In this document: positions 4,583 through 36,880 of the stretch, piece by piece | How positions within the stretch are numbered: the first letter of the stretch is position 1 | Layout: each line of letters begins with the position of its first letter | Origin: an uncultured bacterium | Lineage (GTDB): Bacteria > Babelota > Babeliae > Babelales > Vermiphilaceae | Direction of reading: 5' to 3' | Assembly (NCBI GenBank): GCA_963713925.1 | Contig: OY970212.1 | Location: 1,024,001 to 1,088,000 of the forward strand | DNA: 64,000 nt | Made by a program: the position numbers and the translations under genes | Notes under the pieces: model-generated | Databases searched by the model: none | What the model was told of the DNA's origin: nothing | The model's input: only the letters and a program-made list of their open reading frames with translations

Positions 4583-4648
4583 GACCAGCAGATTTTACTT
4601 TTAAAAAAAATGTTTAAATGAAACATCCTTTGTCACAGAATTCAGATA

Positions 4649-11741: not shown

Positions 11742-11766
11742 TTCTAGTCCTTCAACGTTTTAAATT

Positions 11767-15912: not shown

Positions 15913-16044
15913 GGAGATTCCTTTATTTTATAAATATCGTTTTATATCTTATAAATATTTTTGAAGTAAAAAATAAAGAGTTTCCATGATCGTTTGCTAA
16001 ACTTGTCGGTCGAAGCCTTAAGATTGATGCAAACAAAGAATGTA

Positions 16045-17340: not shown

Positions 17341-17344
17341 TTCG

Positions 17345-17788: not shown

Positions 17789-17880
17789 AACATTTTATGT
17801 AATTTGACCATTTGCTTGATGATTCTCATGAAGATGGATCAATCGGTTGAATTGAGTTTTTAGGTCGGTAGAATAGTCTA

Positions 17881-18387
17881 TCATAATTTATCATTAATTT
17901 CTTTTACTATTGGTAACAAATCACTTTTTGCTTGCTCACCGGTTTCCAATCGATGCACTATTTCGTCAGGAGTGAGCCAATAATATTCAACAAAATCATC
18001 GGTATTAAACGTCGGCGCAATATCAGAATAGATAACATACACCCACATGAAAGCCGAAATTCCGTGAGTCAGCGGAGTTAATCGCGCGACTTTTTTAAAT
18101 GAGACGGTATTAACATCAATGTTCAATTCTTCTGCAGTTTCACGCGCAAAAGCATGATCGTAATCTTCTCCGGCGGCAACATGTCCCCCCACGCTGCAAT
18201 CTAAAGATAATGGAAATAGCTTTTTGTTAGGGTGACGGCGTGGAATCCATAATTGTTTTTGTGTATTACATACAAAAGCATTAATTACTCTAAAAGAGAG
18301 TTGTTGAGCATACACGACGCTTCTTTTTTCTTGACCAATCACCTCATCAAGAGGTGATACAATATCCAAAATTTCATCGTAAGTCAT
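17881..18387 (-). CDS. NUDIX hydrolase (IDI/YfcD-like)
   Basis: GGHVAAGEDYDHAFARETAEELNI Nudix box. Confidence 0.9.
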   Translation of the reverse strand: MTYDEILDIVSPLDEVIGQEKRSVVYAQQLSFRVINAFVCNTQKQLWIPRRHPNKKLFPLSLDCSVGGHVAAGEDYDHAFARETAEELNIDVNTVSFKKVARLTPLTHGISAFMWVYVIYSDIAPTFNTDDFVEYYWLTPDEIVHRLETGEQAKSDLLPIVKEINDKL

Positions 18388-18582
18388 TTTGAAGCCTCCG
18401 TTAATGCAGTCGTAGATATAAATTCCTTATTGGGCGCGTTTATAAAACCATTGAAATTAGATCATTAAACGTGGTTAGTATGTTTTGGTAGCTACTCAAA
18501 AGAAAATCAACCTTCATAAAAATAATGAATCTTAGAGTAAAGATAAAAAACAATTAAATCACGAAAAAAAGAAAGACTTTCT

Positions 18583-18840
18583 ATGATTAAAAAATTATTT
18601 TTATCATTTTGCTCAGCTGTCGCAATGGGTATACCTTCAATCGCCAAGGCGTCAAAGATAGTCCATGTTACTCCTGAAGAATTTAAAAGGGTAGCTGGTG
18701 AACCCGGCAGAATTATTGTTGAAGATGCCAATGTCCATCGTTATTATGCAGTTAGAGACGGAATATTTTTTAGTACTTCTTCACAAGCGACCATCCCTTT
18801 TCCTTCAATGAATGTAATAAAAGGTACTTTAGCCAAATGA
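18583..18840 (+). CDS. Small secreted hypothetical protein
   Basis: Signal peptide ending AKA; hairpin plus T-tract downstream. Confidence 0.5.
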   Translation: MIKKLFLSFCSAVAMGIPSIAKASKIVHVTPEEFKRVAGEPGRIIVEDANVHRYYAVRDGIFFSTSSQATIPFPSMNVIKGTLAK

Positions 18841-19069
18841 TTAATGTCAGTACTCATTGATTTCATAAATCATTAATCGTAAAAAAAGGGCAAGATTTTC
18901 GGCTTGCTCTTTTTTTGTTTTCAATAATTCGGTCCGCTTTGCCCTTATACTTACCGTTCAAGCCGGATTTCTTTAATAGAGAAAGACCGAAATTAATGAG
19001 TAAACCCTAGCAACGCTTCTTCTTTATTAATCTCTTGAAATCCAGTAGCTTATAAGCTAAAATGGTGTT

Positions 19070-19402
19070 ATGAGCCTAATAAAAACAATCGTTTACAAAA
19101 CAAGCACAGGGAAAGAGCCCTTTACCCAATGGCTTCTTGATCTTGATCAAAAGACAAGAGCTATAGTTGTTACGAGAATAAAACGTGTCAATTTGGGTAA
19201 TTTCGGGGGTTGTAAGATGCTCAAACAAGCTTCAGGTGTTTGGGAATTAGTGATCGATTACGGTCCGGGATACCGAGTCTACTTTGGTAAGCAGGGTAAT
19301 ACCATAGTTGTTTTATTAGTCGGGGGAGACAAAGGAAGCCAAGAAAAAGACATAACAAAGGCTCAAAAGTATTGGCTTGATTATAAGGGGTCAATCGAAT
19401 GA
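19070..19402 (+). CDS. Type II toxin-antitoxin toxin, RelE/ParE superfamily (addiction module killer)
   Basis: GNFG, ELVIDYGPGYRVYF, LLVGGDKGSQEKDI. Confidence 0.92.
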   Translation: MSLIKTIVYKTSTGKEPFTQWLLDLDQKTRAIVVTRIKRVNLGNFGGCKMLKQASGVWELVIDYGPGYRVYFGKQGNTIVVLLVGGDKGSQEKDITKAQKYWLDYKGSIE

Positions 19403-19719
19403 CAAGAAAAAAAAGCACACCAAGAACACATAGAGATTTTCAAGAATTATTGCTCGAGAATCTTCAAGATCCGCAAGAAGCTGCTGCTTACTTAAAAGCT
19501 GCTCTTGCCGATGAAGACGAAAGAGTATTTTTACTTGCATTGCGCGACGTATTAGAAGCGCGCGGTGGAACTATTACCGACCTCGCCGAAGAAACACATT
19601 TAAATAAACAGAATCTCTACCGAATGCTTTCTAAAAAGGGTAATCCTCGTCTCACATCGCTGATTACAGTACTGCATGCTATCGGCTTTGAAATGGATAT
19701 CAATCCGATAAAGAAATAA
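19399..19719 (+). CDS. Addiction module antidote (HTH)
   Basis: AAAYL, ALRDVLEARGG, LYRMLSKKGNP; ATGA overlap with the toxin. Confidence 0.92.
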   Translation: MTRKKSTPRTHRDFQELLLENLQDPQEAAAYLKAALADEDERVFLLALRDVLEARGGTITDLAEETHLNKQNLYRMLSKKGNPRLTSLITVLHAIGFEMDINPIKK

Positions 19720-19924
19720 ATACGAGCTATGCAATTATCAAAAGACGACATTACGCTTACTCGTACAATTTTTTGAGAAATTAGGCAAATTCTCGCCTTA
19801 AGTTAAACTGCAGTCGCTGCAACTGCAGTAGAGCAGTAGCCGAAGCTCCAATCGCACACACGGGAATGTTGCAATCGGGCATTCCCTTCTGCTTTTGCTC
19901 ACATGAGGGACAATCTTGTCTATC

Positions 19925-20359
19925 TCACTCACTGATCTTCACATATCCCTCTTGAACGAGCTGGATAGTTCGCGCCATGGCATCAGTGTTCACCTTGATT
20001 CCGGGTAGCAGGTCTGCATTGCCCCATTTGTGAGCGGCGGCAGTCGCGCCGCATAACTCGACCCGCACACCATTCTTAATCAGAACAGCGACAAGTTCTT
20101 TGTAGGGATTGCCCGTCTTGATCATGCGTTCAATGTTGTACGAGTCGTCGTTTAAAGTCACATGGCCCGCATTGGTATGAAAAACCGCGACAATATCCGA
20201 CTTTACATTCCAATTATGGCTGTCCTTTACGATGAGATTAAGATGGAAAATCGACGCTGGAAGATCCCCTTCAAACGCAAGCGCGCTGATACTGAATACT
20301 GCTTTTACTTCCGATAACTTTACCGGAATATCAATGTGAAGTGCCTTTGCTAATACAGT
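19925..20359 (-). CDS. DsrE-like protein
   Basis: AVFH, NPY, GVRVELCGAT, LLPGIKV, LVQEGY. Confidence 0.7.
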   Translation of the reverse strand, partial: TVLAKALHIDIPVKLSEVKAVFSISALAFEGDLPASIFHLNLIVKDSHNWNVKSDIVAVFHTNAGHVTLNDDSYNIERMIKTGNPYKELVAVLIKNGVRVELCGATAAAHKWGNADLLPGIKVNTDAMARTIQLVQEGYVKISE

Positions 20360-20432
20360 CATGTTAACTCCTCTTTTCAAAGCTTATGTGAACCGTGGTC
20401 TTGGCGGATGAATGAGACGGCTGGCAGAGAGA

Positions 20433-21080
20433 TTATGCCATGCGCGTGACTACCTCGTCGGTCGATAGCACCTCGTGCGCCAGATATCGGTAGTTGATCA
20501 GCGCCGCCTGGTAGCCATCGCCCCATTCTGGATGGCTCGGCCCGGCGATCGCATCCTTTACAATAGCAACTTCGAAACCTTGCTCAAGGAACTCGCGCAG
20601 ATGGGACTCGACACACATGTTCGCCAACATCCCACCTAGAATGATCTTGCTGATCCCTCTCTTGCGTAGCTGTAGAACGAGGTCATTGGTCTGCGGGCCA
20701 AACACCTTGTGTGGACTAACAACAATTGTCTTGCCATCTTGAATGTAAGGCTTGAAACGGTCTAGCCAGTCTGCTCCTGAATTCGCAATCCCCGTCAGAT
20801 CCAGCGGCCCGACACGCGCGAAGGTACGCGTGCTCAACTCTACAGCTTCGAGCGGTCCATTGATCTTCCAGCCATGATCGGTTGGGTAGAAATAATGGGG
20901 TGAGATAAGCAGCTCATAGTTATTCGCTTTCGCAGACTTGAAAAGTCGCTCTAAGTTCCCGATAATACCGTTCTTGATGACGCTGGCACCAACCAAGCCC
21001 CAACTCGTGCCCTTCTCGGATAGAAAATCATTTTGTGGATCGATTACAACAACAGCAGTATCACGATTATTAAATTTCAT
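20433..21080 (-). CDS. Isochorismatase-family cysteine hydrolase
   Basis: VVIDPQNDF, HKVFG, GMLANMCVES. Confidence 0.9.
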   Translation of the reverse strand: MKFNNRDTAVVVIDPQNDFLSEKGTSWGLVGASVIKNGIIGNLERLFKSAKANNYELLISPHYFYPTDHGWKINGPLEAVELSTRTFARVGPLDLTGIANSGADWLDRFKPYIQDGKTIVVSPHKVFGPQTNDLVLQLRKRGISKIILGGMLANMCVESHLREFLEQGFEVAIVKDAIAGPSHPEWGDGYQAALINYRYLAHEVLSTDEVVTRMA

Positions 21081-21141
21081 CTTGAACTTTCCCGTTTTTA
21101 CTGAAAATATATGATGGTTTTTTCAATCTTATGGAATAACT

Positions 21142-22305
21142 TCATGGCACAACAGGTCTTTTATTCTTAGAGATTTTTGCCAAAACTGATTCATCGATAT
21201 TTAAATGCGCGCGCACGAGTTCATGTGGCGTAAATGCAAGCCAATGAGCAAGTGAAACATCGGCGAAGTAATCACTTTTAAACACTTCTAGAAATCGCAA
21301 TGTGGTATCTCCAATATTCTCAATGTAATGACCCGTTTGAATAGGAACAACTCCCACATCGCCAGCCTGATAATTAAAAGTCCGTGCCATTCCAACAGGA
21401 GTATATACTGTCATGCGGGCTTGCCCGGAAATGTAATATTGCCATTCATCAGCATTTGGATGCCAGTGCAGTTCGCGCATGCCGCCCGGCTCAATTTCCA
21501 CCAATGCCGCTGCAATTGTTTTTGAAGCGGGAAATACACTTGAGTCAACAATGCGAACAGTCCCACTTTTTGTGCGAATTGGTTTTTGAGCCATCATTTT
21601 GTGGCTAAATGTCTGCGGCACAGGCCCGTTGCCAATTACACGATCCTTAGAAAGTGGCCCCGGAACTTTTGTTTGTAACATGTAAAGTTCTTTTGTGGGA
21701 ATTCGTGCAAATGCACTTTCGGCTACCTGAAAATTTTTTGCAATCACTTCCGGTGGCATATGTGCCAAAAAGTCGCTCAAAGAAAATGTTTCACTTTCCG
21801 AGAAATTGCCATCATCAAACACAAGCAAAAATTCACAGCCATCATCACCAAGCCCTTGAATCGAGTGAGGAATTCCTGCCGGAAAATACCATAAATCACC
21901 TTCAAATACATCATCCTGAAATGTGCATCCATTTTGATCGACAGCAGTAATGCGCGCGCCCCCTTTAATCATATAAGACCATTCAGCAGCATGGTGCCAG
22001 TGTAGCTCGCGCACTCCTCCTGCCGTAAGCCGCATATTGACGCCAGCAAGTGATTTTGCAATTGGCAATTCACGAATGGTAGTCTCGCGCGACCACCCGC
22101 CTTCTTCTAAGCGCATATGGCTATCTGCAAAAGACCACTTTAAATTTGGTAGCAAACCCTTGTCGGTGGGCGGCGGCACCAGAAGATCAGGATTTTGTAC
22201 TTCTAATTGCAGGTTTCTTGGGCCAATTATGTTTCCTCCCAAATCGCCTCTCATCGGCTCAAACTTATGCGCTGAACTTTTTTGAGCGGTACTTTTTTTC
22301 TTCAT
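21142..22305 (-). CDS. Oxalate decarboxylase family bicupin
   Basis: Two RELHWH cupin motifs, PHSIQG, lid [16 protein letters not shown]. Confidence 0.93.
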
Positions 22306-22413
22306 AAAAAACTCCACATAATTTCTTACTTTCAGTAACTATCCGACAATTTAGAAAAATCATGCAACCGGAAGCAAGAAATATTGCGTTTCATTTGAAG
22401 TACTATTTAGTCT

Positions 22414-23638: not shown

Positions 23639-24478
23639 TCAGTCTTCGATTTCATACATATGAATCCACGTCAACTCAGGCGTAATTAAAACTTCGTTCG
23701 GATCACAAAAATGTGACCAAAAAACCTCTGTCACACACGGCTGATAAGATCCATCCGGTCGCAATTCTCTAGTTGTTGTCAAATCCCAATGCAACGGAGA
23801 AATCAAGCATACTTCCTCTAAGGTTATTTTTTTATCAGTGATCAATCGAAATACAATGTCTTGAGCTTTATCAACTTTCCAATAATCGGTAATATGGGTA
23901 CATACCACTTCAATATCCGGAAATATCCTCTTGCATAAAATATTCAGCCCATACAAAATCCGTTTAATTATGTCTTCAGATGAATCATCCACTATACACC
24001 GTATGCATATCCATGACCTCATAGTATCGTACAAAGCAGGATAATATTTCTCCGTGCGAATAATACTGAAGACATCAACGTCTGTAACTTCTGAGCTCAT
24101 GAATATTTCACAACGACCTTCCGGGATATCCCTCGACCAGCTGATACTTTCGACAAAATATTTTTCATAAGGATAAATAGTATATTTTGTAGATGGATGT
24201 GAATTCCACTCTTCTATATCAAACATCTCGGCAAATCGAGCTACATTATCAGGTTCCTTATCCACACACGTATAGATAAGCTCTGAAAGTACCCCGCGCT
24301 TATATTTTTTTCTAGTGAGCTCGCATGTTACATGAGGCGCATATAAAGCAAAACAACCCTTTAGTCGATCGGTAAGATCGTAAACTAATCGCTCAGTTCC
24401 TTCCCGCTTTCCATCAATTTCTATATGAACTTCACATGTATCAGAATACAAACTATTTTTCTTATCTGTTTTGCACAT
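23639..24478 (-). CDS. Putative immunity protein, tandem two-domain paralog
   Basis: Second half has DYWK, LHWD, TWIHMY like the upstream paralogs; first half looks like a degenerate copy; TAATG coupling to the upstream gene. Confidence 0.6.
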   Translation of the reverse strand: MCKTDKKNSLYSDTCEVHIEIDGKREGTERLVYDLTDRLKGCFALYAPHVTCELTRKKYKRGVLSELIYTCVDKEPDNVARFAEMFDIEEWNSHPSTKYTIYPYEKYFVESISWSRDIPEGRCEIFMSSEVTDVDVFSIIRTEKYYPALYDTMRSWICIRCIVDDSSEDIIKRILYGLNILCKRIFPDIEVVCTHITDYWKVDKAQDIVFRLITDKKITLEEVCLISPLHWDLTTTRELRPDGSYQPCVTEVFWSHFCDPNEVLITPELTWIHMYEIED

Positions 24479-24882
24479 TACTTCTCGACCTTATCTTCTG
24501 ACCACGTATAAATATGAACCCATCGCACTTCAGGTAAAAAAAATTCATCTTGTGGGCACTCAATTTTACTCCATAAACCTTCCTCATCTAAATACCGTTC
24601 AGTAGAACCCGCATTATGGCCAACGCTACTTAAATACTCCCAATGCAATGGGATATGATTTAAGAAATCAATAACTCGTAGCGGCTCATCACTCTTCATC
24701 TGAAATATCACATCTTTATCTTCAGGATATTTCCAATAATTTTCACCGGAATATAACAAGCAAGATGCCTTTGGTAATAACTTTTGAACTTCTCTTTTTA
24801 AGCGATCAAACAAATCCTGAACATGATGCTCAGTACCTTTTTCTATAAAACACCGAATCATAAAACTTTTGCATTGTTTCAT
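24478..24882 (-). CDS. Putative immunity protein (YWKYPEDK family)
   Basis: FMIRC, YWKYPEDK, FFLPEVRWVHIYTW. Confidence 0.7.
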   Translation of the reverse strand: MKQCKSFMIRCFIEKGTEHHVQDLFDRLKREVQKLLPKASCLLYSGENYWKYPEDKDVIFQMKSDEPLRVIDFLNHIPLHWEYLSSVGHNAGSTERYLDEEGLWSKIECPQDEFFLPEVRWVHIYTWSEDKVEK

Positions 24883-25298
24883 TTATGATTGCTTTCAACT
24901 TCTCTTGGCCATGAATAAGCGTGAAGCCAATTTATTTTAGGAAAGAGAAATACTTCTTCCGGATGTCCTATTTGGTTCCAAATAGCTTCTTCTTTCCGAT
25001 AAGGCTTCGGCATGTCAGCGTCAGCATCATGCGCACGACTCTCATGGTAATCCCAAGTCAAAGGTATCTTGGATGTTAAGTCTATAATTCTCAACGGTTG
25101 ATCACTGTAAATAACATAAATTTCTTCTCTATCTTCTGGACATTTCCAATAATGATCAGAAGACCAAATATCTATTTTAGCTTGAGGGAAAACATTCCGA
25201 ATCAAAGACGTTAATCCTGCAAATAACTGTTGCGCGTCTTCTTGGGTGCCGTTATTAATAAGACATTTGACCATAAAAGCCTTACAATAATTAATCAT
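24879..25298 (-). CDS. Putative immunity protein (YWKCPEDR variant)
   Basis: Same family; ATGA-coupled to the orphan toxin tip. Confidence 0.7.
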   Translation of the reverse strand: MINYCKAFMVKCLINNGTQEDAQQLFAGLTSLIRNVFPQAKIDIWSSDHYWKCPEDREEIYVIYSDQPLRIIDLTSKIPLTWDYHESRAHDADADMPKPYRKEEAIWNQIGHPEEVFLFPKINWLHAYSWPREVESNHK

Positions 25299-25399
25299 TT
25301 ATGTGTAACCCTTCCTTTAAAACTCACATTCAAATGAATATTATCTCGAGTCATCCAACCAACCTGCTGTTTGCCTTGAGGAGATAATTGAACATCCCA
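25295..25399 (-). pseudogene. Orphan toxin C-terminal remnant (34 aa)
   Basis: WDVQLSPQGKQQVGWMTRDNIHLNVSFKGRVTHK*, near-identical to both toxin tips; in-frame TAA two codons upstream, no start codon. Confidence 0.9.
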
Positions 25400-25494
25400 A
25401 CATTAAACCCAATCTCGCAAGCTCCGATTGAGACTGTCAAATCCCATTAGCTTAGAAAGACATCAAAAAAGAACACGGGAAATTTTCTAAAAGA

Positions 25495-25914
25495 TCATTC
25501 CACTAACGGCAGATTTTCAACGTTATCCCAAAACCATGTATAGACATGAACCCAATTAACGCTTGGTAAAAAAAATGATTCTTCAGAATCTTCATACTGA
25601 TGCCAAGTCGCTCTTTCATCGAAAAAGACTTCTTTTGTTTCAGAATCGTGAGCAACCCCGCTTTTATACTCCCAACTTAGTGTTATATGACTAATGAAGT
25701 TAATAACCTTTAAAGGTTCTGTGCCGCTTACCTTGAAAATCACTTCCTTATCTTCCGGGTATTTCCAATAATGCCTATTTGCAAACAATGAAAATTGCAC
25801 ATCATTAAAAACCTTATTGACAAGTCGTTCTATGGAATTAGATAATTTTTGAACATCCTCATCATTCCCCTGCCATATATGACATTTGATCATAAAATTT
25901 TTACAGTATTTCAT
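25495..25914 (-). CDS. Putative cognate immunity protein of toxin 1
   Basis: ATGA overlap with the toxin stop; YWKYPEDK, WVHVYTW. Confidence 0.75.
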   Translation of the reverse strand: MKYCKNFMIKCHIWQGNDEDVQKLSNSIERLVNKVFNDVQFSLFANRHYWKYPEDKEVIFKVSGTEPLKVINFISHITLSWEYKSGVAHDSETKEVFFDERATWHQYEDSEESFFLPSVNWVHVYTWFWDNVENLPLVE

Positions 25915-27845
25915 TTGTGGGTTACCCTACCTTTAAGACTTACATTCAAATGTGTGTTATCTCGCGTCATCCATCCGACTTGCTGTACTCCTTGGGGAGA
26001 GAGTTGCACATCCCATTCTACACGCTCTTGCTTGAAACCCCGCGCTCCAATGGTTCTTGATTTTCCTTCTACCCAAATATTTTTAAACCTATCAACAAAC
26101 CCCTCATCACCATTTTTAGAAATACCCCTTGGCAGCCCATTTGCAACATCAAACTTTTTAGGTGGGACATATCGTAGCTTACCAGTATGGGGCAATTCAG
26201 CTGCCTTTACCAAACTCTTGATACTCGTCTTTTTATTATTACGTTTTCTAAGTTTTTTGAGAGCGGACTTACTTAATTGTTTTACATCAGCTGAAGTACT
26301 CGATGTAAATTTCGCGGCGCTCTGACCAGCACAAAATGATTCATCAACGGCCTTGAACATTACTCCTTCGGGAGTTGTCATATACATCTGCGGAGTCGCA
26401 AGTGGATTTTTTTCTATATAGTTGATCGCTTTGGTTTTAACGGTTGAATAGAATTTGCCCAAACCACCTAAGATCTTGCCCTGCGTTTTGTATTGCACGA
26501 CAAGCTTGGTTCCCTGTTTGAGAGCATCACGTAAGGAAATTTCATTATTTGCAAAAGCCGTTCCAACTGCGGTAATCACATTCGTAATCGGAGCAATATA
26601 ATCATCCCATTTTTCTCGACCCGCTTGCGCATCAATCAAGCTCGTAATACCGATATCGGCCAAATTGGTGGCAATTTTAAGAGCCTGATATGCCATGACA
26701 TAGTTGCCAATCGTCAAGCTTGCAACCGTTTGTAACGGATTATTGTAAATATCAACAACCGCACCGATCGCACCTTCTACAGCTCCCTCAATGACAGCCG
26801 AACAACAATCCAAAATCCCCCAACACACATCAGCAACTGACATTGCTTTTTCAGTCTTACCTGCCTGATTGAGCATTCGGGCACCGTCAGCAAGATCAAT
26901 GAGCGCATCCTTATGCTCATATGCTGGATGATCGCTGGAAAGATGAATCGCGCGATCAACGATATCTATGCATTCTTGGTGAATTGTTTGTTGTAATGCA
27001 GAACCATAGCAGTGTTCATATTCGTATGGTGATGCTTGATGCTGCCGAAGTTTTTGTTTGACGTCATCAGAGAGACAATATTCTTTATGTTCAAAGTGAA
27101 GCAATGCCTCATCGGCAAAGATCGCTTGCATGCGTCGCTCAAAACGATCTGATTGCGTGTCACAATCGTCATATAAATCTAGCGCATCGTAATAATCATC
27201 GATATTTTCATTAAACTCATGCGAATTATCTTTGTAACCGTCTCTGATAATTGCTTCGTTGCGCAAGCGAGCTTGACGTTTTCTTTCCGCAACTTCTCGC
27301 CGATTTTTTATATCCTTGCACTCACCGGCAATACAATTAAGATGGCATAATCCCTCATCGCAATGCATATGCCAATTATAGCCGGTATAATTATATTTTT
27401 TGCACAATCTCTCATATGCCACTAAAAGATTATCTTCATAATTTCCGACATGCGACTTTAAAAATGCCCTATAAGCCGGACTTGTATACAACTGCCACTG
27501 ATCAAACAACCAATCGGGATCTGAAATTTTTCCGGTAAATCGAGCCGCTTCGGCAAATTCTTCACCCGACCACTCTTTGCACTTTTTTTGATTGTTAATC
27601 AATTGATTGTAACGCGCTATTTCTTGATTATGGAGAGCCTTTTCCAACTGAGCAAGTTGCTCTTGCAAACTCAGATTTGGCAATCTTGTGCGCAATCTTT
27701 TTTGAGATGTGTTTTTTATTGTGATTCCGTTGTTTTCCCGCTTATTTTTACCATAGACAACCTCAAGATCGATAGGATTTTCATTTTTGGAATATGTGGT
27801 AATCGAGAGAAAACAGACGCATAAAAGAAATTTGAGAATCAGCAT
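25911..27845 (-). CDS. Secreted polymorphic toxin 1 with Ntox17-like C-terminal domain
   Basis: Signal peptide; tip LPHTGKLRYVPPK...GFVDRFKNIWVEG...EWDVQLS...HLNVSLKGRVTH matches my recollection of Ntox17. Confidence 0.8.
   Translation of the reverse strand: MLILKFLLCVCFLSITTYSKNENPIDLEVVYGKNKRENNGITIKNTSQKRLRTRLPNLSLQEQLAQLEKALHNQEIARYNQLINNQKKCKEWSGEEFAEAARFTGKISDPDWLFDQWQLYTSPAYRAFLKSHVGNYEDNLLVAYERLCKKYNYTGYNWHMHCDEGLCHLNCIAGECKDIKNRREVAERKRQARLRNEAIIRDGYKDNSHEFNENIDDYYDALDLYDDCDTQSDRFERRMQAIFADEALLHFEHKEYCLSDDVKQKLRQHQASPYEYEHCYGSALQQTIHQECIDIVDRAIHLSSDHPAYEHKDALIDLADGARMLNQAGKTEKAMSVADVCWGILDCCSAVIEGAVEGAIGAVVDIYNNPLQTVASLTIGNYVMAYQALKIATNLADIGITSLIDAQAGREKWDDYIAPITNVITAVGTAFANNEISLRDALKQGTKLVVQYKTQGKILGGLGKFYSTVKTKAINYIEKNPLATPQMYMTTPEGVMFKAVDESFCAGQSAAKFTSSTSADVKQLSKSALKKLRKRNNKKTSIKSLVKAAELPHTGKLRYVPPKKFDVANGLPRGISKNGDEGFVDRFKNIWVEGKSRTIGARGFKQERVEWDVQLSPQGVQQVGWMTRDNTHLNVSLKGRVTHK
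26328..27211. repeat. ~884-bp direct repeat copy A (toxin core)
   Basis: Colinear with 29862-30745 at the same 3534-bp offset at both ends; scattered substitutions. Confidence 0.9.
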
Positions 27846-27948
27846 ATGAGGCATCCTTTGTTAATTCCAGCATACTACAGAAAATATTTCAAAAAAAGAC
27901 ACCGCCTTAATGATTAAGACGGTGCATGCAATATATTGTTCCGATTAT

Positions 27949-28335
27949 TTACTGAATCTTATATTTATTGAGAAATTTTTTTACTTTAAAAGCCTTGTTG
28001 TAGAAACGAAGCACTTCATGAGTTGCAGCATTAAAATCCTTCGTTTGTTGAAAATGGCAATGTCTACCTTTATAGATATACCACTGAGACATATCTTTGT
28101 AAGTACTCGCCATGACTTTTTGTGCAGTCTTACGTTTGCATGAATTGATGCAACTATATAACTTACGTAGCCCCTCTTCTCTCATCGCTTTTGATTCAGG
28201 ATAATTTCTTGCATCTAATCCGACAGCAGCAAAAGTAGATCCACAAACTTCCGCACATTGAAATAAATCTTCAGCCTTTTCTGCGGCAAAAGCAATTCCA
28301 ACTGTAGAGATTAAAAGTAACGCAAGTAATTTCAT
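27949..28335 (-). CDS. Small secreted hypothetical protein with two CxxxC pairs
   Basis: AAGGA Shine-Dalgarno, signal peptide ending AFA, CAEVC and CINSC. Confidence 0.7.
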   Translation of the reverse strand: MKLLALLLISTVGIAFAAEKAEDLFQCAEVCGSTFAAVGLDARNYPESKAMREEGLRKLYSCINSCKRKTAQKVMASTYKDMSQWYIYKGRHCHFQQTKDFNAATHEVLRFYNKAFKVKKFLNKYKIQ

Positions 28336-28429
28336 ATGAATTCCTTAGAAAAAAATGGCCCAATATTACTGAAGTTTTGCCGCACACGGTTATAGATATA
28401 AATACCAATAAATACCTTACTGGCGTAGT

Positions 28430-28489
28430 CTGGCCGTGCCAGCCATAGCCTTCGCTAAACCTCATCGTCAGCCGTCTCAAGGCGACGGC
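28430..28489. repeat. tRNA-3'-flank REP-like element
   Basis: CTGGCCGTGCCAGCCATAGCCTT...GGCGACGGC resembles 50533-50564, which abuts the tRNA-Ser CCA end. Confidence 0.6.
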
Positions 28490-28588
28490 TGGTGGACCGA
28501 ATCGGATGATTTTAGCAACTTCAATATAGATGAAAAGCTGTTATTTGCAATAAAACAATTCATGCAAGAGACTTCATTAATTATTTAA
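28490..28588 (+). other. Distal att site carrying the displaced C-terminal coding segment of the recombinase
   Basis: Reads WWTESDDFSNFNIDEKLLFAIKQFMQETSLII*, in frame with the recombinase terminal KWW across the 7-bp core. Confidence 0.65.
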
Positions 28589-28595
28589 ATAACTA

Positions 28596-29015
28596 TCACT
28601 CAACGTTTTCTTCTGGCCAGGTATAAATATGTACCCAAGTAATCTCAGGCATCAAAAAACTTTCTTCAGGATGCACATTTTTACTCCAAATGGCGTTTTC
28701 ATTATGAAAAGTTTTCTTTTGGGTTACTTCGTAACAGTTGTTTCCTCTAAAATTCCATGCGATAGGAATTACTTTAATAAAGCGTGAAACACCATAAGTC
28801 TCTCGACCCAAAATCTCATAAATTACTTCTTTGTCTTCAGGAAACTTCCAATAATATGCGTTAATGGCAAGCTCACATGAAGCTTGCGGAAATTGCTCTT
28901 TCAAGAACTGCTTCAATTTCATTGTAAGCTCAGCAACATGTTCTTCTGTACCATTGTGAATCATGCACCGCACCATATAACTTTTACTAAAAAACACTTG
29001 ACCGGATTCACTCAT
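28596..29015 (-). CDS. Putative immunity protein (YWKFPEDK)
   Basis: Same family; overlaps the stop of the upstream paralog. Confidence 0.7.
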   Translation of the reverse strand: MSESGQVFFSKSYMVRCMIHNGTEEHVAELTMKLKQFLKEQFPQASCELAINAYYWKFPEDKEVIYEILGRETYGVSRFIKVIPIAWNFRGNNCYEVTQKKTFHNENAIWSKNVHPEESFLMPEITWVHIYTWPEENVE

Positions 29016-29415
29016 CCTCAACCTCATCTACAGGCCAAGTATAAACACGGATCCAATAAATTTCGGGCAATAAAAATCGCTCTTGAGAATCACTCTCTCT
29101 TCTCCAAAGAGCCTCTTCACTAAAATAAAGTTTATCTGTATCCGCATCGCGAGCAATCTCACTTTTATACTCCCAGCTCAACATGGTATTTCCTATAAAG
29201 TAAGCCACATTGAGCGCCTTTTGACTTTTTATTTCAAAAATAAGTTGCTTGTCTTCCGGATACTTCCAATAATATTCGTCCGAACGCAAAGATACCTTTG
29301 CATCTTCAAATATATCTTCGATAAATGTAGTTAATGTTTCTAATAGTTTTCTGATATGATCTTCTGAAGCTTTTTCCAAAAAACATTTAATCATAAAAAT
29401 ATTACTGCGTTTCAT
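29008..29415 (-). CDS. Putative cognate immunity protein of toxin 2
   Basis: ATGA overlap with the toxin stop; YWKYPEDK, WIRVYTW. Confidence 0.75.
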   Translation of the reverse strand: MKRSNIFMIKCFLEKASEDHIRKLLETLTTFIEDIFEDAKVSLRSDEYYWKYPEDKQLIFEIKSQKALNVAYFIGNTMLSWEYKSEIARDADTDKLYFSEEALWRRESDSQERFLLPEIYWIRVYTWPVDEVEDE

Positions 29416-31358
29416 TTATGAGTCACCCTTCCCTTGAAACTCACATTTAAATGAGTGTTATCTCGAGTCATCCATCCACACTGCTGAACTCCTTGAGGTG
29501 ATAATTGAACATCCCATTCTTTCGGTTCGAATTCATGTCCACGACCACCTAGCGTCCGAGTTTCTCCTTTAACCCAAACATTTTTAAATCGATCTATATA
29601 ACCGGTATCTCCATTATCCATTTTTTTGACGGGAAGCCTTTCTCCAGGCTTCATACCTTTTGGAGGTATATACCGAATTTTACCTTCCGTGGGCAACTCA
29701 GCCTTTTTTATTTGACCTCGTATACTCCGCTTTCCCTCTTTTCTTAACTCTTTTTCAGCCGCCCTTGCTGCCATTCGTAACTGCTTTTTGTTAACCCATG
29801 CAGATTGACCCGATTGTATCGCTCCGCCTGCCAACTGCCCGGATTGTGCTGCTCGCTGCGTAGCACAAAATGATTCATCCACAGCCTTGAACATAACTCC
29901 TTCAGGAGTTGTCATATACATCTGCGGAGTCGCAAATGGATTTTTTTCTATATAGTTAACTGCTTTGGTTTTGACAGTCGAATAGAATTTACCCAACCCA
30001 CCTAAGATCTTGCCCTGCGTTTTGTATTGCACGACAAGCTTAGTTCCTTGCTTAATCGCATCGCGTAGAGAAATTTCATTGTTTGCAAAAGCAGTTCCAA
30101 CTGCGGTAATCACATTCGTAATCGGAGCAACATAATCATCCCATTTTTCTCGACCCGCTTGCGCATCAAACAAGCTCGTAATACCGATATCGGCCAGATT
30201 GGTTGCAATTTTAAGAGCCTGATATGCCATGACATAGTTGCCAATCGTCAAGCTTGCAACCGTTTGCAACGGATTATTGTAAATATCAACAACCGCACCG
30301 ATCGCACCTTCTACAGCTCCCTCAATGACAGCCGAACAACAATCCAAAATCCCCCAACACGCATCGGCAACCGACATTGCTTTTTCGGTTTTGCCCGCTT
30401 TGTTGAGCTCGCGCGCGCCATCTGCAAGATCAATAAGCGCATCCTTATACTCATATGCCGGATGATCATTGGAAAGATGAATCGCCCGATCAACGATATC
30501 TATGCATTCTTGGTGAATTGTTTGTTGTAATGCAGAGCCATAGCAATGTTCATATTCGTATGGTGATTCTTGGTGCTGCCGAAGTTTTTGTTTGACGTCA
30601 TCCGAGAGACAATATTCTTTATGTTCAAAGTGAAGCAATGCCTCATCGGCAAAGATTGCCTGCATGCGTCGCTCAAAACGATCTGATTGCGAGTCACAAT
30701 CGTCATATAAATCTAGCCCATCGTAATAATCATCGATATTTTCATCAAGCTCCCGAGCGTATTCTTGATAGCCCGATTTGATATCGTCTTCATACTTTTT
30801 GCGTGCCTTTTTGTACGCTTCTTCTCGTTCTCGTTTTGATCTGATACTGGAACATTCGCTGGCAATATAATTAAGATGACATAACCCTGTATTGTGCCAG
30901 TTGCCCGGATGGTTATGCTTCTCTTCTAGCTTATCATAGGCCCTGACTAATCGACCCTCATAATCATCGATCGTTTTTAAGAATTCCCGATATTGTGGAA
31001 TTTTGTATAGATCCCATTGATCGAATAGCCATACTTTATTAATGTATTTGCGTGCTACAATTGCTGCTCGACGAAATTCCTTTACCGTCCAGTCTTTGCA
31101 TTTACGCTGATCATATATAAGACTAAACTCTTTCTTGTAGAACATCTCATACAATTGTTTTCTCGTCACTTGCACCTTCGGCGCTAATGGCCAATGATGC
31201 GGCTTCGGCTTAATATGGTCCTTTTGGTGCTCTTGTGGAAACTCTTGCTCTCGATGGTAGACTACGGGCTCAAGATCAATTGGATCTTCTTGTCCACAAA
31301 GTTTTGGTGCGAATGTAGTAATGATGAAAACCAAGAAAAAATGATTCGATGTGATCAT
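29412..31358 (-). CDS. Secreted polymorphic toxin 2 with Ntox17-like C-terminal domain
   Basis: AAAGGA Shine-Dalgarno 8 nt before ATG 31358, signal peptide, PIDLE motif; tip LPTEGKIRYIPPK...GYIDRFKNVWVKG...EWDVQLS...HLNVSFKGRVTH. Confidence 0.8.
   Translation of the reverse strand: MITSNHFFLVFIITTFAPKLCGQEDPIDLEPVVYHREQEFPQEHQKDHIKPKPHHWPLAPKVQVTRKQLYEMFYKKEFSLIYDQRKCKDWTVKEFRRAAIVARKYINKVWLFDQWDLYKIPQYREFLKTIDDYEGRLVRAYDKLEEKHNHPGNWHNTGLCHLNYIASECSSIRSKREREEAYKKARKKYEDDIKSGYQEYARELDENIDDYYDGLDLYDDCDSQSDRFERRMQAIFADEALLHFEHKEYCLSDDVKQKLRQHQESPYEYEHCYGSALQQTIHQECIDIVDRAIHLSNDHPAYEYKDALIDLADGARELNKAGKTEKAMSVADACWGILDCCSAVIEGAVEGAIGAVVDIYNNPLQTVASLTIGNYVMAYQALKIATNLADIGITSLFDAQAGREKWDDYVAPITNVITAVGTAFANNEISLRDAIKQGTKLVVQYKTQGKILGGLGKFYSTVKTKAVNYIEKNPFATPQMYMTTPEGVMFKAVDESFCATQRAAQSGQLAGGAIQSGQSAWVNKKQLRMAARAAEKELRKEGKRSIRGQIKKAELPTEGKIRYIPPKGMKPGERLPVKKMDNGDTGYIDRFKNVWVKGETRTLGGRGHEFEPKEWDVQLSPQGVQQCGWMTRDNTHLNVSFKGRVTHK
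29862..30745. repeat. ~884-bp direct repeat copy B (toxin core)
   Basis: Matches 26328-27211. Confidence 0.9.
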
Positions 31359-31524: not shown

Positions 31525-32706
31525 ATGGCCTCTGAAAAAAAACTCTTAGAGCATATTAAAAAAAATAACGATAAAGCTCAAGCTTCCACATTATTAAAAC
31601 ATTGCCTTCTTCATACAATTGATTGTATGAAAGAATACAATGACAATAGTGAATTGAAAGCAATTAACGATTTATTAGACCGCGATGAAAAGAATGATAT
31701 CGGGCCCTTGAATGAGCACGAACAACGAATTCTCCAAGAATATACAAACATATATGAACAAGTGAAAATTTATAAAAAGGTTTGTGGCTTCAAACAATCG
31801 GAAATCACACGATTTGAAGCACTTGGCAATGATGACCCCCAAAAACGGATTGATGGCACATGGGACTTGGTAACGGAAAAAAAGATAGCACTGGAAGGCG
31901 AGTTACATTTCTTGGCAAAAAGATCATCTAAACATTGGCCGTTTGTATCAATGTTTGGAAGTATTATCTGTCCAACAACTAGTCGATATAACCCACGAAT
32001 AGATTTTTCTCTCAAACGTCAAAACTATGATGAATGGCTAAAAAATAAGGAAGCTTTTGAATTAGCACAAAAAACAAAGACCTGGTATCACCGGAATAAA
32101 CTTACATGGATATATCGTGTCCTCACCAATGGAGAAGCTGAGTATAAAAGGCTGATGGATTTGGGTCTTTTTTTGGAAGCGACAGATGTCAGCGCTCTGT
32201 ATAACGGATTACGTAGTGGCTTAGAATTAGGACCTAAAATTGGTAGGAATGCTATAAAACTTGAAGAGTTGAAATATAGTTTGCAAAAAATAGTTGATTA
32301 TACAGAAAAAAACTTAGAAAGTTACTCTAAGCCAAATATGACCAATGATCCAGAGAGTAAATCAATTCCCACGTATGATGGCGGAACTGGAATATTGAAT
32401 GTTTATGATACGGAAATTGACTTCGATGTTCAAGCCGATCGGCATAAAATCTTAGAAATAGGCTTTCCAAACGGTATACCTGCCCAAAACGGTATTGCGC
32501 ACGATATTATTTATGATGAAGCGTTAAAAACAGATGCTGACCTTTCCTGGCATCAACTCAATAAAGAAACACGGGCTGAAATAAAAAAAAAGATACGAGA
32601 AATCTGTCGTGGCATAAATGATCGAGTTGAACAAAAGGCTAAAGAGAAAATTTCGATTGCTACCTCTAAGGGAGGGGTTGTTCACTTCGGTTATGATAGT
32701 CAATAG
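31525..32706 (+). CDS. Hypothetical protein (element core)
   Basis: 393-aa ORF with AAAGGA Shine-Dalgarno, no signal peptide, no recognisable motif. Confidence 0.75.
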   Translation: MASEKKLLEHIKKNNDKAQASTLLKHCLLHTIDCMKEYNDNSELKAINDLLDRDEKNDIGPLNEHEQRILQEYTNIYEQVKIYKKVCGFKQSEITRFEALGNDDPQKRIDGTWDLVTEKKIALEGELHFLAKRSSKHWPFVSMFGSIICPTTSRYNPRIDFSLKRQNYDEWLKNKEAFELAQKTKTWYHRNKLTWIYRVLTNGEAEYKRLMDLGLFLEATDVSALYNGLRSGLELGPKIGRNAIKLEELKYSLQKIVDYTEKNLESYSKPNMTNDPESKSIPTYDGGTGILNVYDTEIDFDVQADRHKILEIGFPNGIPAQNGIAHDIIYDEALKTDADLSWHQLNKETRAEIKKKIREICRGINDRVEQKAKEKISIATSKGGVVHFGYDSQ

Positions 32707-33378: not shown

Positions 33379-34950
33379 ATGAGTAATGATAACACAAAAA
33401 AAGTTTCTAAACAACGAAAAATCCCTCGCAGTAAGCAAATCGAGATCATGCAAACTGAATGGTATAAAGAAGCTCAACAATTAGCATCAGAAAAATCCCA
33501 TCTCGGTTATAAAGATTTTCCATGGGATGCTTTTTTGGAAATAACACCCAATGATAGCTTGGATAGCTCGAAACAATCACAAATCATCGCGTTACAAGAG
33601 AGGTATAAAGAGTTAATCGAGCGTCAAAAGCTTTTGTGGGCAGAAGACAACGTTGTCACTGAACTAAACAAAATTCATGCAGTTGTACACATTGATCAAA
33701 CTTTTATCATCACCGAAAAAAAGAATTCACTTGGCGGTCATGATTTTTCATTTGAAGGTAGGCAATCCTTCAAGGCGTTTTATGAAGATGAAACAATCAT
33801 ATGCATCGATGGTATTGAACGATGCAAAGCGAGCATTTGGTTGAAAAGTTCGAAAAGACGCAAATACAAAGGTATTGTTTTTGATCCCAATATAATAGGC
33901 CCTGTAGATGGCTGCTACAATTTGTGGAAAGGTTTTACGAGAAAATCAATACAAGGAACCACTCAAAAATATTGGGCTCACGTTAAAGAAAATATTTGCA
34001 ATGGAGATGAAGAATCCTATCAATATATACGAAAATGGCTCGCTTATGTTTTTCAACGACCTGATCAAGTTCACACCGGCATAGTGCTTCGCGGTTCACA
34101 AGGGGTCGGAAAAAATAGTTTCGTTGAGCCCTTGGGAGTTCTTTTGGGATCACACTATGCACCGCTCAGCAGCATTTCAGAGCTCGTTTCAAATTTCAAT
34201 TATCATCTCAAAAATGCAGTTCTAATTCACGCCAATGAAGCATTATGGGGTGGAAATAAGAAAGAGTTAGGAACAATTAAAGCAATGATCACAGAACGAT
34301 CCTGTTTAATTGAAGGGAAAGGGAAAGATAGAATTGTAGTCAGAAATTTTAAGCATGTCATTCTAAGCAGCAATGAAGACTGGCCGGTTTCATTGGATGC
34401 AGATGATCGTCGTTTTTTTGTTCTAACTGTTTCGGAAAAGCACAAAGAAGATCATGAGTACTTTAAAGCGATACAAGAAGAGCTAGATAATGGAGGCTAT
34501 GAAGCTTTATTATTTGATTTGCTCAACGAGGACATATCAAATTTTAATCCTCGTAAACTGCCAAGTTCATCTGATTCTTTCAGCATAAAAATGCGAAGCG
34601 CCGATTCCCCGCAGCGATACTTATATGAAGTATTGTGTGAAGGCGGGTTTTCCATTGGAGATGATGGTGGGAACACAACTCCTGTTTGGCAGGATACAAT
34701 CCCAAAAGATGCTGTTCGCAAAGATTATGTCGCATGGTGCGAAAAAAATGGCGAGCCTGTCTTATCCCAAAATCTATTCGGACGAGTAATAAACAAGACC
34801 ATCGCTTCTGTGCTAGATACGCGTCCGAGCTGTGGCAGCCGTCAACGATGCTATAGATTCCCTAGCTTACGCAAATCACAAGAAGATTTTTGCAAAGCTT
34901 TTAAGGAAAAGCCTGAACGAATTTTTGATAATTACGAAACTATTGACTAG
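33379..34950 (+). CDS. SF3 (D5/NrS-1-like, DUF5906) replicative helicase
   Basis: YNLWKGF, Walker A GSQGVGKN, Walker B IHANE, ILSSN, DDRRFF. Confidence 0.88.
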   Translation: MSNDNTKKVSKQRKIPRSKQIEIMQTEWYKEAQQLASEKSHLGYKDFPWDAFLEITPNDSLDSSKQSQIIALQERYKELIERQKLLWAEDNVVTELNKIHAVVHIDQTFIITEKKNSLGGHDFSFEGRQSFKAFYEDETIICIDGIERCKASIWLKSSKRRKYKGIVFDPNIIGPVDGCYNLWKGFTRKSIQGTTQKYWAHVKENICNGDEESYQYIRKWLAYVFQRPDQVHTGIVLRGSQGVGKNSFVEPLGVLLGSHYAPLSSISELVSNFNYHLKNAVLIHANEALWGGNKKELGTIKAMITERSCLIEGKGKDRIVVRNFKHVILSSNEDWPVSLDADDRRFFVLTVSEKHKEDHEYFKAIQEELDNGGYEALLFDLLNEDISNFNPRKLPSSSDSFSIKMRSADSPQRYLYEVLCEGGFSIGDDGGNTTPVWQDTIPKDAVRKDYVAWCEKNGEPVLSQNLFGRVINKTIASVLDTRPSCGSRQRCYRFPSLRKSQEDFCKAFKEKPERIFDNYETID

Positions 34951-34954
34951 GAGC

Positions 34955-35178
34955 GTCCATTATGATGTCCATGATCTGCAATAGAAAAAATATTTGATTT
35001 ATGACGTTAGTCCAAGACGTCCATATCGTCCGGGCTGTTAAGAAACCGAAACATTCTTCTCATGATAAACGGTGAAGAAAAATTTTGGTGTTCAAACCAC
35101 TCGGACCATGTGGACTGTGTGGACAATGATTATGGAATCGATATTGTCACAATCTTTCTTCCTGGACATATTGTGGAC
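34955..35178. promoter_or_regulatory. Putative iteron replication origin of the element
   Basis: GTCC at 34955, 34967, 35010, 35019, 35028 mirrored by GGAC at 35103, 35112, 35121, 35164, 35175. Confidence 0.75.
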
Positions 35179-35192
35179 TAAAAAGGAGCGTT

Positions 35193-36221
35193 ATGACTCT
35201 TATTGAAATCGCACAACAAGCTGGCATAAAACCAAAGTGGGTGGCAGGCACCGGCGGTGGAGAATATCACTCAGCATGCCCATCCTGCGGTGGGAAGGAT
35301 CGTTTCTTTATTCAGCCATACAAACAAATGGCCAAATGCGTAGGAAGTTATTGTTGTAGAAAATGCGGTATCGCTGGTGATGCAATTCAGTTTGCTCGAC
35401 AGTTTTTAAGCTGTTCTTTTCAAGAAGCTGCTCAGATGGTAAATGCAATAATAAATGAAAACATATCGCTTCCTTCTTTTGCACCTATCAATTCTGCAAA
35501 GCCAGCTATTTTGGTACCTCCTCCAGAAAAATGGTGCGCACATGCTACGGATTTCGTTAATCGTGCGCATGAACGCCTTTTGAGCAATGAGGATGGGTTA
35601 CAACTCCTCACAAACAGAGGACTTCCACTTGATGCCGTCATTCGCTACAAGCTTGGGTGGTCAGATAAAAATGAGTTCTTCTCAAGAACTCATTGGGGTC
35701 TTGCCGATCGATTCGATCAGAACAATAAGAATCGACAGTTGTGGGTACCACAAGGACTTGTTATACCTTCGATCGAGCCAAGCGGCAAAGTAACTCGTTT
35801 GAAAATTAGAAGATGCGATTGGAACGCCGGAGATAAATTACCTAAATATGTGGCAATTTCTGGTAGCATGAATGGTTTGATCATTATTGGCTCAACAAAT
35901 CGTTCTACGATGATTGTGGTCGAGTCAGAGCTTGATGCATATGCAATACATCATGCAGCATCTGATTTTGCTTTCGGAGTCGCTGTTGGAAGTAATATTA
36001 AAAACCCGGACAATATAACTGATCATAATGCGCGAAATAGCAAACAGCTGCTTATCTGTCATGATAACGATGAACCGGGAAAAATAATGTTTTCAAAGTG
36101 GCAACGCTTATATCCGCATGCTATCAACTATCCAACCCCAATTGGTAAAGATATTGGAGAAGCAATTCAAAATGGGTTCAATTTAAGAGAGTGGCTTTTA
36201 TTAGGACTCCGGTCAATTTAA
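35193..36221 (+). CDS. Zn-ribbon plus Toprim primase-like protein
   Basis: CPSCGGKDRF...CRKCG zinc ribbon, VVESELDA, ICHDND, KDIGE. Confidence 0.85.
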   Translation: MTLIEIAQQAGIKPKWVAGTGGGEYHSACPSCGGKDRFFIQPYKQMAKCVGSYCCRKCGIAGDAIQFARQFLSCSFQEAAQMVNAIINENISLPSFAPINSAKPAILVPPPEKWCAHATDFVNRAHERLLSNEDGLQLLTNRGLPLDAVIRYKLGWSDKNEFFSRTHWGLADRFDQNNKNRQLWVPQGLVIPSIEPSGKVTRLKIRRCDWNAGDKLPKYVAISGSMNGLIIIGSTNRSTMIVVESELDAYAIHHAASDFAFGVAVGSNIKNPDNITDHNARNSKQLLICHDNDEPGKIMFSKWQRLYPHAINYPTPIGKDIGEAIQNGFNLREWLLLGLRSI

Positions 36222-36397: not shown

Positions 36398-36880
36398 ATG
36401 AAATTTTTAAAAATTTCTTCTGCATTTTTACTTGTGCTAGGTTTATTTGGCCGCAGTACGACACTCCTTGGAATGGATGATATTGTTATTCATAAAGCAC
36501 CAACTAAAACAAATGATCCCCAAGGGAAAAAATTTGGCAAATTCTTTTTTTCAGGCCACGCCCAAACAAGAATGAAAGAGAGAGAAGTTTCTTTTGAGGA
36601 AGCTTCTGATGTAGTGAGACATGGCAACCGTTATAATACATTAGAAGGCGCAAAACTCTGTTTTTATGACAAAAAAAATATTGCTGTAGTTCTAAATGAT
36701 AAAACCAATACCATAATTACTGTTCTTTCAAACTTTAATCAAAAAAAATTGATTAAATGGTTGAGCAAGCGCGATGAAAAAAAACCATTTGCTAAGCCTG
36801 CTGCTGTAAAACCAAATGAATTCGTTGAAAAAAAACCATGCTTTACTGAAGTAAACAGTGATTTCGATATCTTTTTGTAA
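36398..36880 (+). CDS. Secreted protein with DUF4258-like domain
   Basis: Signal peptide; FSGHAQTRMKEREVS...IAVV...IITV. Confidence 0.65.
   Translation: MKFLKISSAFLLVLGLFGRSTTLLGMDDIVIHKAPTKTNDPQGKKFGKFFFSGHAQTRMKEREVSFEEASDVVRHGNRYNTLEGAKLCFYDKKNIAVVLNDKTNTIITVLSNFNQKKLIKWLSKRDEKKPFAKPAAVKPNEFVEKKPCFTEVNSDFDIFL

Follow-up and report, generated by a model that had tools for sequence, protein, structure and literature searches.

A probable polymorphic toxin system with Ntox17 tips and an undescribed constant domain in Babelota

Signal-peptide toxins with lineage-specific N-terminal domains, namely MAFB-N, Microscilla-N and APD1/2, were defined as a category of polymorphic toxins by Zhang et al. 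in 2012, who expected more of them (PMC3482391). The described systems closest to the locus analyzed here are MafB-MafI of Neisseria, CdiA/CdiI, the APD1/APD2 proteins of Amoebophilus, and toxin-immunity pairs of bacteria that live inside protists; for the Ntox17 toxin domain, the usual partner given in passages of PMC3482391 is Imm31. The locus lies at positions 23639-31358 of a stretch of 64,000 nucleotides (nt), referred to below as the window (positions 1,024,001 to 1,088,000 of the forward strand of contig OY970212.1, assembly GCA_963713925.1). The window comes from an uncultured bacterium of the phylum Babelota (Dependentiae), the genome of which consists of one contig (C1) of 1,318,721 base pairs and is 95.75% complete. 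Comparison of sequences across the phylum suggests that this locus probably encodes an antibacterial polymorphic toxin system, typical of the phylum, in which variable toxin tips are joined to a constant carrier domain.

On the minus strand, the locus consists of toxin T1, two small genes, an unrelated open reading frame (ORF) of 128 amino acids (aa), toxin T2, one small gene, a toxin remnant and three further small genes, as follows.

29412-31358, minus: toxin T1, 648 aa from ATG (ORF list, Pfam, alignment, hydropathy)
29874-30716, minus: putative carrier core of T1, aa 215-495 (alignments, structure model; no family match)
29415-29726, minus: Ntox17 tip of T1, aa 545-648, with E614-x-D616 and H636 (PF15524, E 5e-24)
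29008-29415, minus: candidate T1 immunity gene, 135 aa, ATGA-coupled, unnamed family (sequence comparison)
28596-29027, minus: extra (orphan) immunity paralog, 143 aa (sequence comparison)
27949-28335, minus: 128-aa ORF lying between the two units and unrelated to them, N-terminus hydrophobic (no family or paralog found)
27899-27925, minus: terminator-like hairpin upstream of T2, 12 pairs followed by a T run (pattern match only)
25911-27854, minus: toxin T2, 647 aa, architecture as in T1 (PF15524, E 2e-21)
26340-27182, minus: core of T2
25914-26225, minus: Ntox17 tip of T2
25495-25914, minus: candidate T2 immunity gene, 139 aa, ATGA-coupled (sequence comparison)
25298-25399, minus: Ntox17 3' remnant, 34 codons, with an in-frame stop just upstream (no core homology)
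24879-25298, minus: orphan immunity paralog, 139 aa, ATGA-coupled to the remnant (sequence comparison)
24478-24882, minus: orphan immunity paralog, 134 aa (sequence comparison)
23639-24478, minus: diverged tandem double-domain immunity paralog, 279 aa (sequence comparison)

A promoter scan gave matches at chance level (27, against 26.5 expected).

T1 is composed of a signal-peptide-like N-terminus, a variable N-domain, the conserved core, a basic linker and the Ntox17 tip; an alternative GTG start further upstream would lengthen it to 671 aa. An earlier note on the window, made from the sequence alone, had described two paralogs of ~650 aa with shared motifs and a near-identical center, and these are present: both toxins contain the PIDLE, CKxW, WLFDQW and AVIEGAVEGAIGAVV motifs, and their identity is 68% overall (437 of 647 positions), 96% within the core (T1 aa 215-495), and 92.9% in DNA across 891 nt. 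The note's reading of the tip as Ntox17 was correct, with PF15524 scores of 84.8 bits (T1) and 76.5 bits (T2) against a cut-off of 25. The glutamate, aspartate and histidine of Ntox17 are invariant in all seven aligned tips, matching the ExD and H motif given in PMC3482391. Ntox17 tips encoded on proteobacterial plasmids are ~50% identical to the window tip; no solved relative was found for the Ntox17 tip or for two further tips of the genome. Beyond Ntox17, the Pfam scan of T1 and T2 yielded no credible match. In line with the earlier note, Pfam detected no LXG or Hint domain in either toxin, nor WXG or PT-TG (with controls positive, the genome has no PF14449 match at E<=1), and no RHS, PAAR or VgrG domain in the window proteins or the relatives.

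The core (~280 aa), which the earlier note had called unrecognised, indeed has no family match: nothing credible was found in Pfam (a DNA_processg_A match on the relative P0048 is below the cut-off), the best hits in NCBIfam and among PDB sequences have E values of 0.012 and 0.09, respectively, and PHROGs gave none. In the ESM Atlas, no score reached 0.9, and one PT-TG cluster, at 0.86, was under the lead threshold. A profile derived from an alignment of 59 sequences (A2) detects the core at full length in nine genes of the genome and in 116 of 261 genomes of the Dependentiae/Babelota; these genomes include 17 of the 21 families and 87 of the 189 high-quality genomes. With a single core protein as the query, 52 of the 261 genomes were matched. 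The profile also matches 1,123 protein clusters (50% identity, E<=0.001), and the core proteins named by organism belong to Ca. Dependentiae or Ca. Babeliales (one in one search, two of ten in another), names that bear out the Dependentiae host of the earlier note. A one-motif scan of GTDB yielded 12 titled loci, four of them Dependentiae/Babeliales, seven 'uncultured bacterium' and one 'uncultured Pseudomonadota bacterium'; a single-protein GTDB scan returned no confirmed core relative, and word-index searches, which are insensitive, gave 7, 5 and 2 matches. Restriction of the core to Babelota is therefore graded as likely and no higher, given that the GTDB titles are mixed and that 150 of the 1,123 clusters were listed.

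A search of the core in Dependentiae for alternative C-terminal toxin domains, as the earlier note had proposed, uncovered many. Within the genome itself, the seven other core toxins are located at the following positions of C1.

91295-93028: core toxin (L105)
128674-131100: core toxin (L005)
175703-177727: core toxin (L052)
601549-603519: core toxin (L002)
685066-687504: core toxin (L004)
837876-839915: core toxin (L001)
1236210-1238087: core toxin (L003)

The nine tips of the genome comprise two Ntox17, one EndoU, one Ntox21, one resembling the CdiA toxin 5T86, and four for which Pfam has no name. The Ntox21 tip has a solved homolog in the CdiA toxin 4NTQ (E 2.3e-10), and the 5T86-like tip (E 2.5e-17) is followed by a gene of the CdiI family PF24172. 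Among 59 relatives taken from the top-scoring core loci, a toxin-domain family was matched in 23, two of these below the cut-off: EndoU in seven, Ntox17 in five, Ntox21 in four, Ntox35 in four (one below the cut-off), Cytotoxic in two (one below the cut-off) and colicin D in one. For 72 of 147 new cluster representatives, the count was six Ntox17, four Ntox21, two EndoU, two Ntox35 and one Cytotoxic. The 167 distinct tips form 28 BLAST clusters, and in 39 of the 49 pairs of cores that are at least 60% identical, the tips differ, a difference that extends to cores 95% identical, in tandem copies of genome G232. On the core tree, the 21 tip labels require 44 changes (minimum 20, shuffled mean 51.3). 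The family compared here has a constant part with interchangeable tips, and tip-plus-immunity cassettes are swapped behind the TPEG motif at the end of the core.

Some architectures deserve separate mention. The locus in G232 (L036, G232:C1:1003000-1021000) contains four tandem toxin-immunity units with cores 81-95% identical and three tip classes; two of its toxin ORFs, as called, lack the signal-peptide region. A PT-HINT domain precedes the core in two of the 59 and two of the 72 relatives, and in L041:1753-4371, L042:2025-4595 and P0112, Hint is situated between the signal peptide and the core, not directly before the tip.

The small genes follow the tips. An ATGA overlap links the stop of T1, of T2 and of the remnant to the start of the following gene, confirming the coupling that had been noticed for both toxins, and all seven further full-length toxins of the genome have small genes downstream. 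In the fetched loci, a same-strand ORF is found within -60 to +40 nt of 66 of 68 complete toxins. Pairs with the same tip share the downstream family in 100 of 124 cases (2,000 shuffles: mean 6.2, maximum 19), a test that overstates independence because the loci are top-scoring and related. The six small genes of the window belong to one family; five are single-domain proteins with pairwise identities of 33-46%, and the product of 23639-24478 is a diverged tandem of two such domains, 18-30% identical to the single-domain members. This family occurs at -4 behind all eight Ntox17 tips of the fetched loci; as a query, it detects 11 of the 261 phylum genomes, and in ten examined loci (nine from the family search plus L087) it directly follows a whole or partial Ntox17 tip. 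In genomes G135 and G138 (L113 and L114), the same Ntox17-immunity pair is attached to proteins lacking a core match, with a weak Hint_2 match in L114, so that the small gene tracks the tip and not the core.

Eight of 56 downstream genes exceed Pfam cut-offs, two each for CdiI_ImmP, CdiI_N, DUF2247 and DUF6980. The window family itself has no match in Pfam (all 12 members examined lack Imm31), among PDB sequences or in the ESM Atlas, and is a candidate new family of Ntox17 immunity proteins. In two proteobacterial plasmid regions that were opened, Ntox17 resides in DUF637/haemagglutinin loci and is followed by a 71-75-aa Imm31; identification of the Babelota partner (124-143 aa) as Imm31 was ruled out (hhalign against Serratia Imm31, probability 0.4%). 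Translational coupling to a gene family that tracks the tip makes it very probable that the coupled small gene encodes the cognate cytoplasmic immunity protein. The earlier claim of orphan modules holds, with four extra immunity paralogs in the window and one orphan tip. The latter is the 34-codon remnant, 91% identical to the end of the toxin tip, which has no core homology and so resembles a scar more than a complete cassette. Arrays of orphan immunity genes are also present at L087 and L105; in L087 (4137-9414), eight small ORFs form a mixed array behind an Ntox17 core toxin, and three of the eight belong to the window immunity family. Extra immunity paralogs would collect downstream of the toxins and may cover the Ntox17 variants of competitors.

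These orphan genes bear on the question of the target. An unlikely alternative makes the protist the target: nucleases would be delivered by the core into its cytoplasm, or into its mitochondrion with rRNA and tRNA of bacterial type, and the immunity gene would only shield the producer until export or enforce host addiction. Such host-directed use would suit the strictly intracellular life of Babelota described in the available part of PMC12172432, the replication of Chromulinavorax wrapped in a host mitochondrion and its secretion of nucleases and vesicles (as reported in sections of PMC6561590), the addiction by polymorphic toxins proposed in passages of PMC8163844 for a Bodo endosymbiont, and the host effectors carried by lineage-specific N-domains of Amoebophilus (PMC3482391). 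Orphan immunity genes, however, are needless for self-protection and fit defense against bacterial toxins; the nameable tips belong to interbacterial systems; Pfam reports no ankyrin, ubiquitin-system or protease tips on 131 proteins; and, according to parts of PMC3482391, immunity genes are usually missing where the toxins of intracellular bacteria are aimed at the host. Under the antibacterial reading, the Ntox17 tip, a predicted RNase, would probably cut RNA in rival bacteria, which could be non-kin Babelota or other endosymbionts sharing the host cell or food vacuole.

Export of the toxins was assessed by a simple hydropathy proxy rather than SignalP, which finds a signal-peptide-like N-terminus in 55 of 64 toxins (of 68, four truncated or short ORFs being excluded), compared with 6 of 66 downstream proteins and none of 64 internal windows; a lipobox is present in one of the 64. 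It is quite likely that the N-terminal hydrophobic peptide routes the toxin through Sec. Components of a type II secretion system (T2SS) are encoded in the genome: GspE, which exceeds the NCBIfam cut-off, two GspD-like secretins, a pseudopilin resembling GspH, and a gene like PilM/GspL. A T2SS-like region with two secretins and GspE spans C1:1251162-1271502, and a second GspE-like ATPase is encoded at 15518-16702. No VirB4 or TolC-type match was obtained in the genome, and VipB of the sheath of type VI secretion systems (T6SS) was detected in none of the 261 phylum genomes, with a positive E. coli control. For TpsB, the genome has no ShlB match, in a search in which the controls were silent too, and 25 of the 261 genomes have weak partial matches, mostly in frames of 670-1000 aa. 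For Babela massiliensis, the parts of PMC4378268 available report no secretion system other than T2SS. On these findings, Sec followed by release through T2SS would be the simplest route.

The AlphaFold2 model of the core, computed from A2, has a mean predicted local distance difference test (pLDDT) score of 66 and a predicted template modeling score of 0.57. Residues 11-120 are confidently modeled (block means 76-97) and, apart from two short strands, mainly helical; low confidence attaches to the Gly-rich segment (128-168) and to most helices after it, and the C-terminal half ends at the TPEG motif. Nearly invariant glycines in the helical segment are G133 in alignment A2 and G134 and G138 in alignment A3. 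Foldseek found no match at E<=0.001 in PDB or BFVD, and the best VIA match, from a model with a pLDDT of 66, is to generic helical bundles (Z 7.5, root-mean-square deviation 4.6, 116 aligned), results that leave the novelty of the core fold unproven. The hydrophobic central segment pointed out in the earlier note exists but is only moderately hydrophobic (Kyte-Doolittle 19-residue mean 1.45-1.59).

We lean slightly toward the constant core acting as a carrier, with the folded N-terminal half serving secretion or target recognition, the Gly-rich helical C-terminal half aiding passage of the tip across the membrane of the target, and the variable N-domain perhaps setting specificity. The membrane-crossing role of the C-terminal half is a guess from its position, conserved glycines and moderate hydrophobicity. 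A stronger version, in which the core is a self-sufficient, undescribed translocation module and T2SS-secreted proteins bring dozens of distinct nucleases into rivals within one protist cell or into the host mitochondrion, we regard as doubtful. A little more credible, and compatible with an antibacterial role, is that the core is a mere surface anchor or secretion tag, with uptake through the machinery of the target or by vesicle fusion, which would imply no new translocation mechanism. That role has been proposed for lineage-specific N-domains such as MAFB-N (PMC3482391), and it agrees with the weak hydrophobic segment and with the outer-membrane vesicles reported for Chromulinavorax in the portion of PMC6561590 consulted. 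An anchor is harder to reconcile with the rarity of the lipobox, the lack of a conserved mafA-like neighbor, the near-invariance of the glycines in the helical segment, and the position of the core, always directly before the tip.

The surroundings of the locus offer some indications of mobility.

33379-36221, plus: phage/plasmid-type primase-helicase and primase genes (context, outside the toxin system)
41167-42633, plus: large serine recombinase, the gene of which overlaps tRNA-Ala(GGC) (42622-42697, minus) at the 3' end of the tRNA

The primase/helicase pair and the recombinase are 2-11 kb to the right of the toxin locus, the GC content of which is 0.39, compared with 0.41 for the genome. 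The second toxin pair of the genome lies between tRNA-Asp and another recombinase. Thus, the earlier suggestion of partial carriage by a mobile element gains a recombinase at tRNA-Ala and nearby primase genes, but lacks boundaries, and no att repeat for tRNA-Ala was found in the window or the genome; location of the toxin locus on an integrative island is plausible, but most copies of the toxin have no recombinase close by in the fetched flanks. The same genes, together with recombinases in the flanks of 3 of 107 fetched loci, would suit a selfish toxin-antitoxin cargo that works within its own producer cell and stabilizes integrative elements. We consider this very improbable: most toxins have signal-peptide-like N-termini (55 of 64), the toxins have a conserved carrier of 280 aa, most toxin copies are found among unrelated or housekeeping genes, and sequence searches for the core gave no match among phages (50,697 records), plasmids (72,556 records) or viral contigs.

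Several observations weigh against the antibacterial carrier system as a whole, apart from the relatedness of the loci and the hydropathy proxy already mentioned. The core profile has no match in 145 of the 261 phylum genomes, 36 of the 59 relatives have no Pfam toxin-family match, and 48 of the 56 downstream genes carry no Pfam immunity name. Nine of the 64 toxins fall below the hydropathy score, and signal peptides are common in the phylum, being present in 44% of coding sequences in Chromulinavorax according to the accessible text of PMC6561590. Upstream genes are not conserved (53 ORFs of 68 toxins, in clusters of at most three), with no common partner or transporter among them. In the core model, 81 of 281 residues have a pLDDT below 50 and half of the model is rated as low-confidence; taken with the weak hydrophobic segment, this leaves a translocation role without structural support. 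The RNase activity of Ntox17 is a prediction in the relevant passages of PMC3482391, and those of PMC11745345 report no test of it; toxicity, neutralization, secretion and target are likewise predicted here. On the other side, the variety of tips, the tip-matched downstream genes and the presence of known CdiI families uphold the identification as a polymorphic toxin system made in the earlier note.

Other features of the window are listed below.

2932-5696 and 11424-12443: two small families of short ORFs arranged in tandem, their hydrophobic N-termini repeated (direct repeats)
16045-22317: left flank, with an addiction-module-like Gp49/HI1420 pair (Pfam), a cupin gene and genes that we take to be umuDC-like; possibly further island cargo
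20-21 kb: GC 0.505, beside the cupin gene
28408-28495: 88-nt intergenic segment, 82% similar to C1:583975-584061 beside tRNA-Met, possibly a small repeated element
31525-32706: 393-aa ORF oriented divergently from T1; one distant paralog at C1:1317607-1318311, no family match
36398-36880: 160-aa ORF matching DUF4258 (E 2.5e-5), hydrophobic at its N-terminus; DUF4258 also weakly matches one class of core-family toxin tips
51913-54766: two adjacent membrane-protein genes, presumably resembling ATP/ADP translocases, which would fit an intracellular lifestyle

Babelota have been known chiefly as parasites that depend on a host and have reduced genomes. This 1.32-Mb genome retains nine full-length toxin genes, ~18 kb in sum, and such retention, along with a core in at least 116 of 261 genomes, points to routine conflict among bacteria within or between host cells. 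No prior description of such intracellular conflict in Babelota was found in the literature searched, which left subscription journals uncovered. The searches for polymorphic or secreted toxins in Dependentiae/Babelota, which did not extend to subscription journals and supplements, found no paper describing the core family, and a term search of the available part of PMC12172432 gave no match to 'toxin' or 'secretion'. Were the core a self-sufficient translocation module, it would serve obligate intracellular parasites as a phylum-wide weapon for superinfection exclusion and would count as a new delivery class of polymorphic toxins. The core also provides a hook for toxin discovery, given its 1,123 clusters and the many among the 28 tip clusters that have no Pfam name; a candidate antidote gene usually adjoins the core toxin.

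The protist setting has precedents. The earlier note had considered immunity-bearing toxins unexpected in a protist parasite, but toxin-immunity pairs and orphan modules inside protists have been described for Odyssella (PMC3482391) and, in the part of PMC8163844 consulted, for Ca. Bodocaedibacter vickermanii; these belong to another lineage, the Bodo symbiont has a T6SS according to the same text, and the carrier here is a different, unnamed domain. APD1/APD2 of Amoebophilus and Microscilla-N (PMC3482391) likewise have a constant domain after the signal peptide, many C-termini and scattered loci, and APD shares the amoeba-endosymbiont setting. Compared by description and not by sequence, APD differs in its lipobox and host-directed C-termini, whereas here 1 of 64 toxins has a lipobox and 66 of 68 are accompanied by immunity-type genes.

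With CdiA/CdiI (5T86 and 4NTQ; DUF637-Ntox17-Imm31 loci on Serratia and Arsenophonus plasmids), the Babelota toxins share a pool of tips, and some core paralogs carry CdiA-homologous tips next to CdiI-family genes. However, these proteins of ~650 aa have no haemagglutinin, DUF637 or VENN stalk (Pfam, E<=1, also in relatives), and their 124-143-aa partner family is unrelated to the 71-75-aa Imm31 of the Ntox17 loci of contact-dependent inhibition.

The greatest likeness is to MafB-MafI, which, as described in sections of PMC4287609 and PMC3482391, combines a signal peptide, a lineage-restricted constant domain and variable nuclease tips, Ntox17 and EndoU among them, with an immunity gene immediately downstream and several copies per genome. 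T1 and T2 have no MafB-N/DUF1020 match, the sole PF06255 match of the genome being elsewhere and below the cut-off, and the toxin loci have no conserved mafA-like upstream gene; the constant domain adjoins the tip and is preceded by the variable domain, its distribution is phylum-wide as opposed to genus-restricted, and the hosts are intracellular. By sequence features, the system is of the signal peptide plus lineage-specific domain kind, MafB-like but not a member of MafB. The 'new delivery class' suggested in the earlier note accordingly exceeds the evidence, in that Zhang et al. 2012 had already defined the category (PMC3482391) and the delivery role is deduced, but an undescribed carrier is indeed present. 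Signal-peptide polymorphic toxins were thus known; what the Babelota add to them is an undescribed putative carrier domain and a candidate family of Ntox17 immunity proteins.

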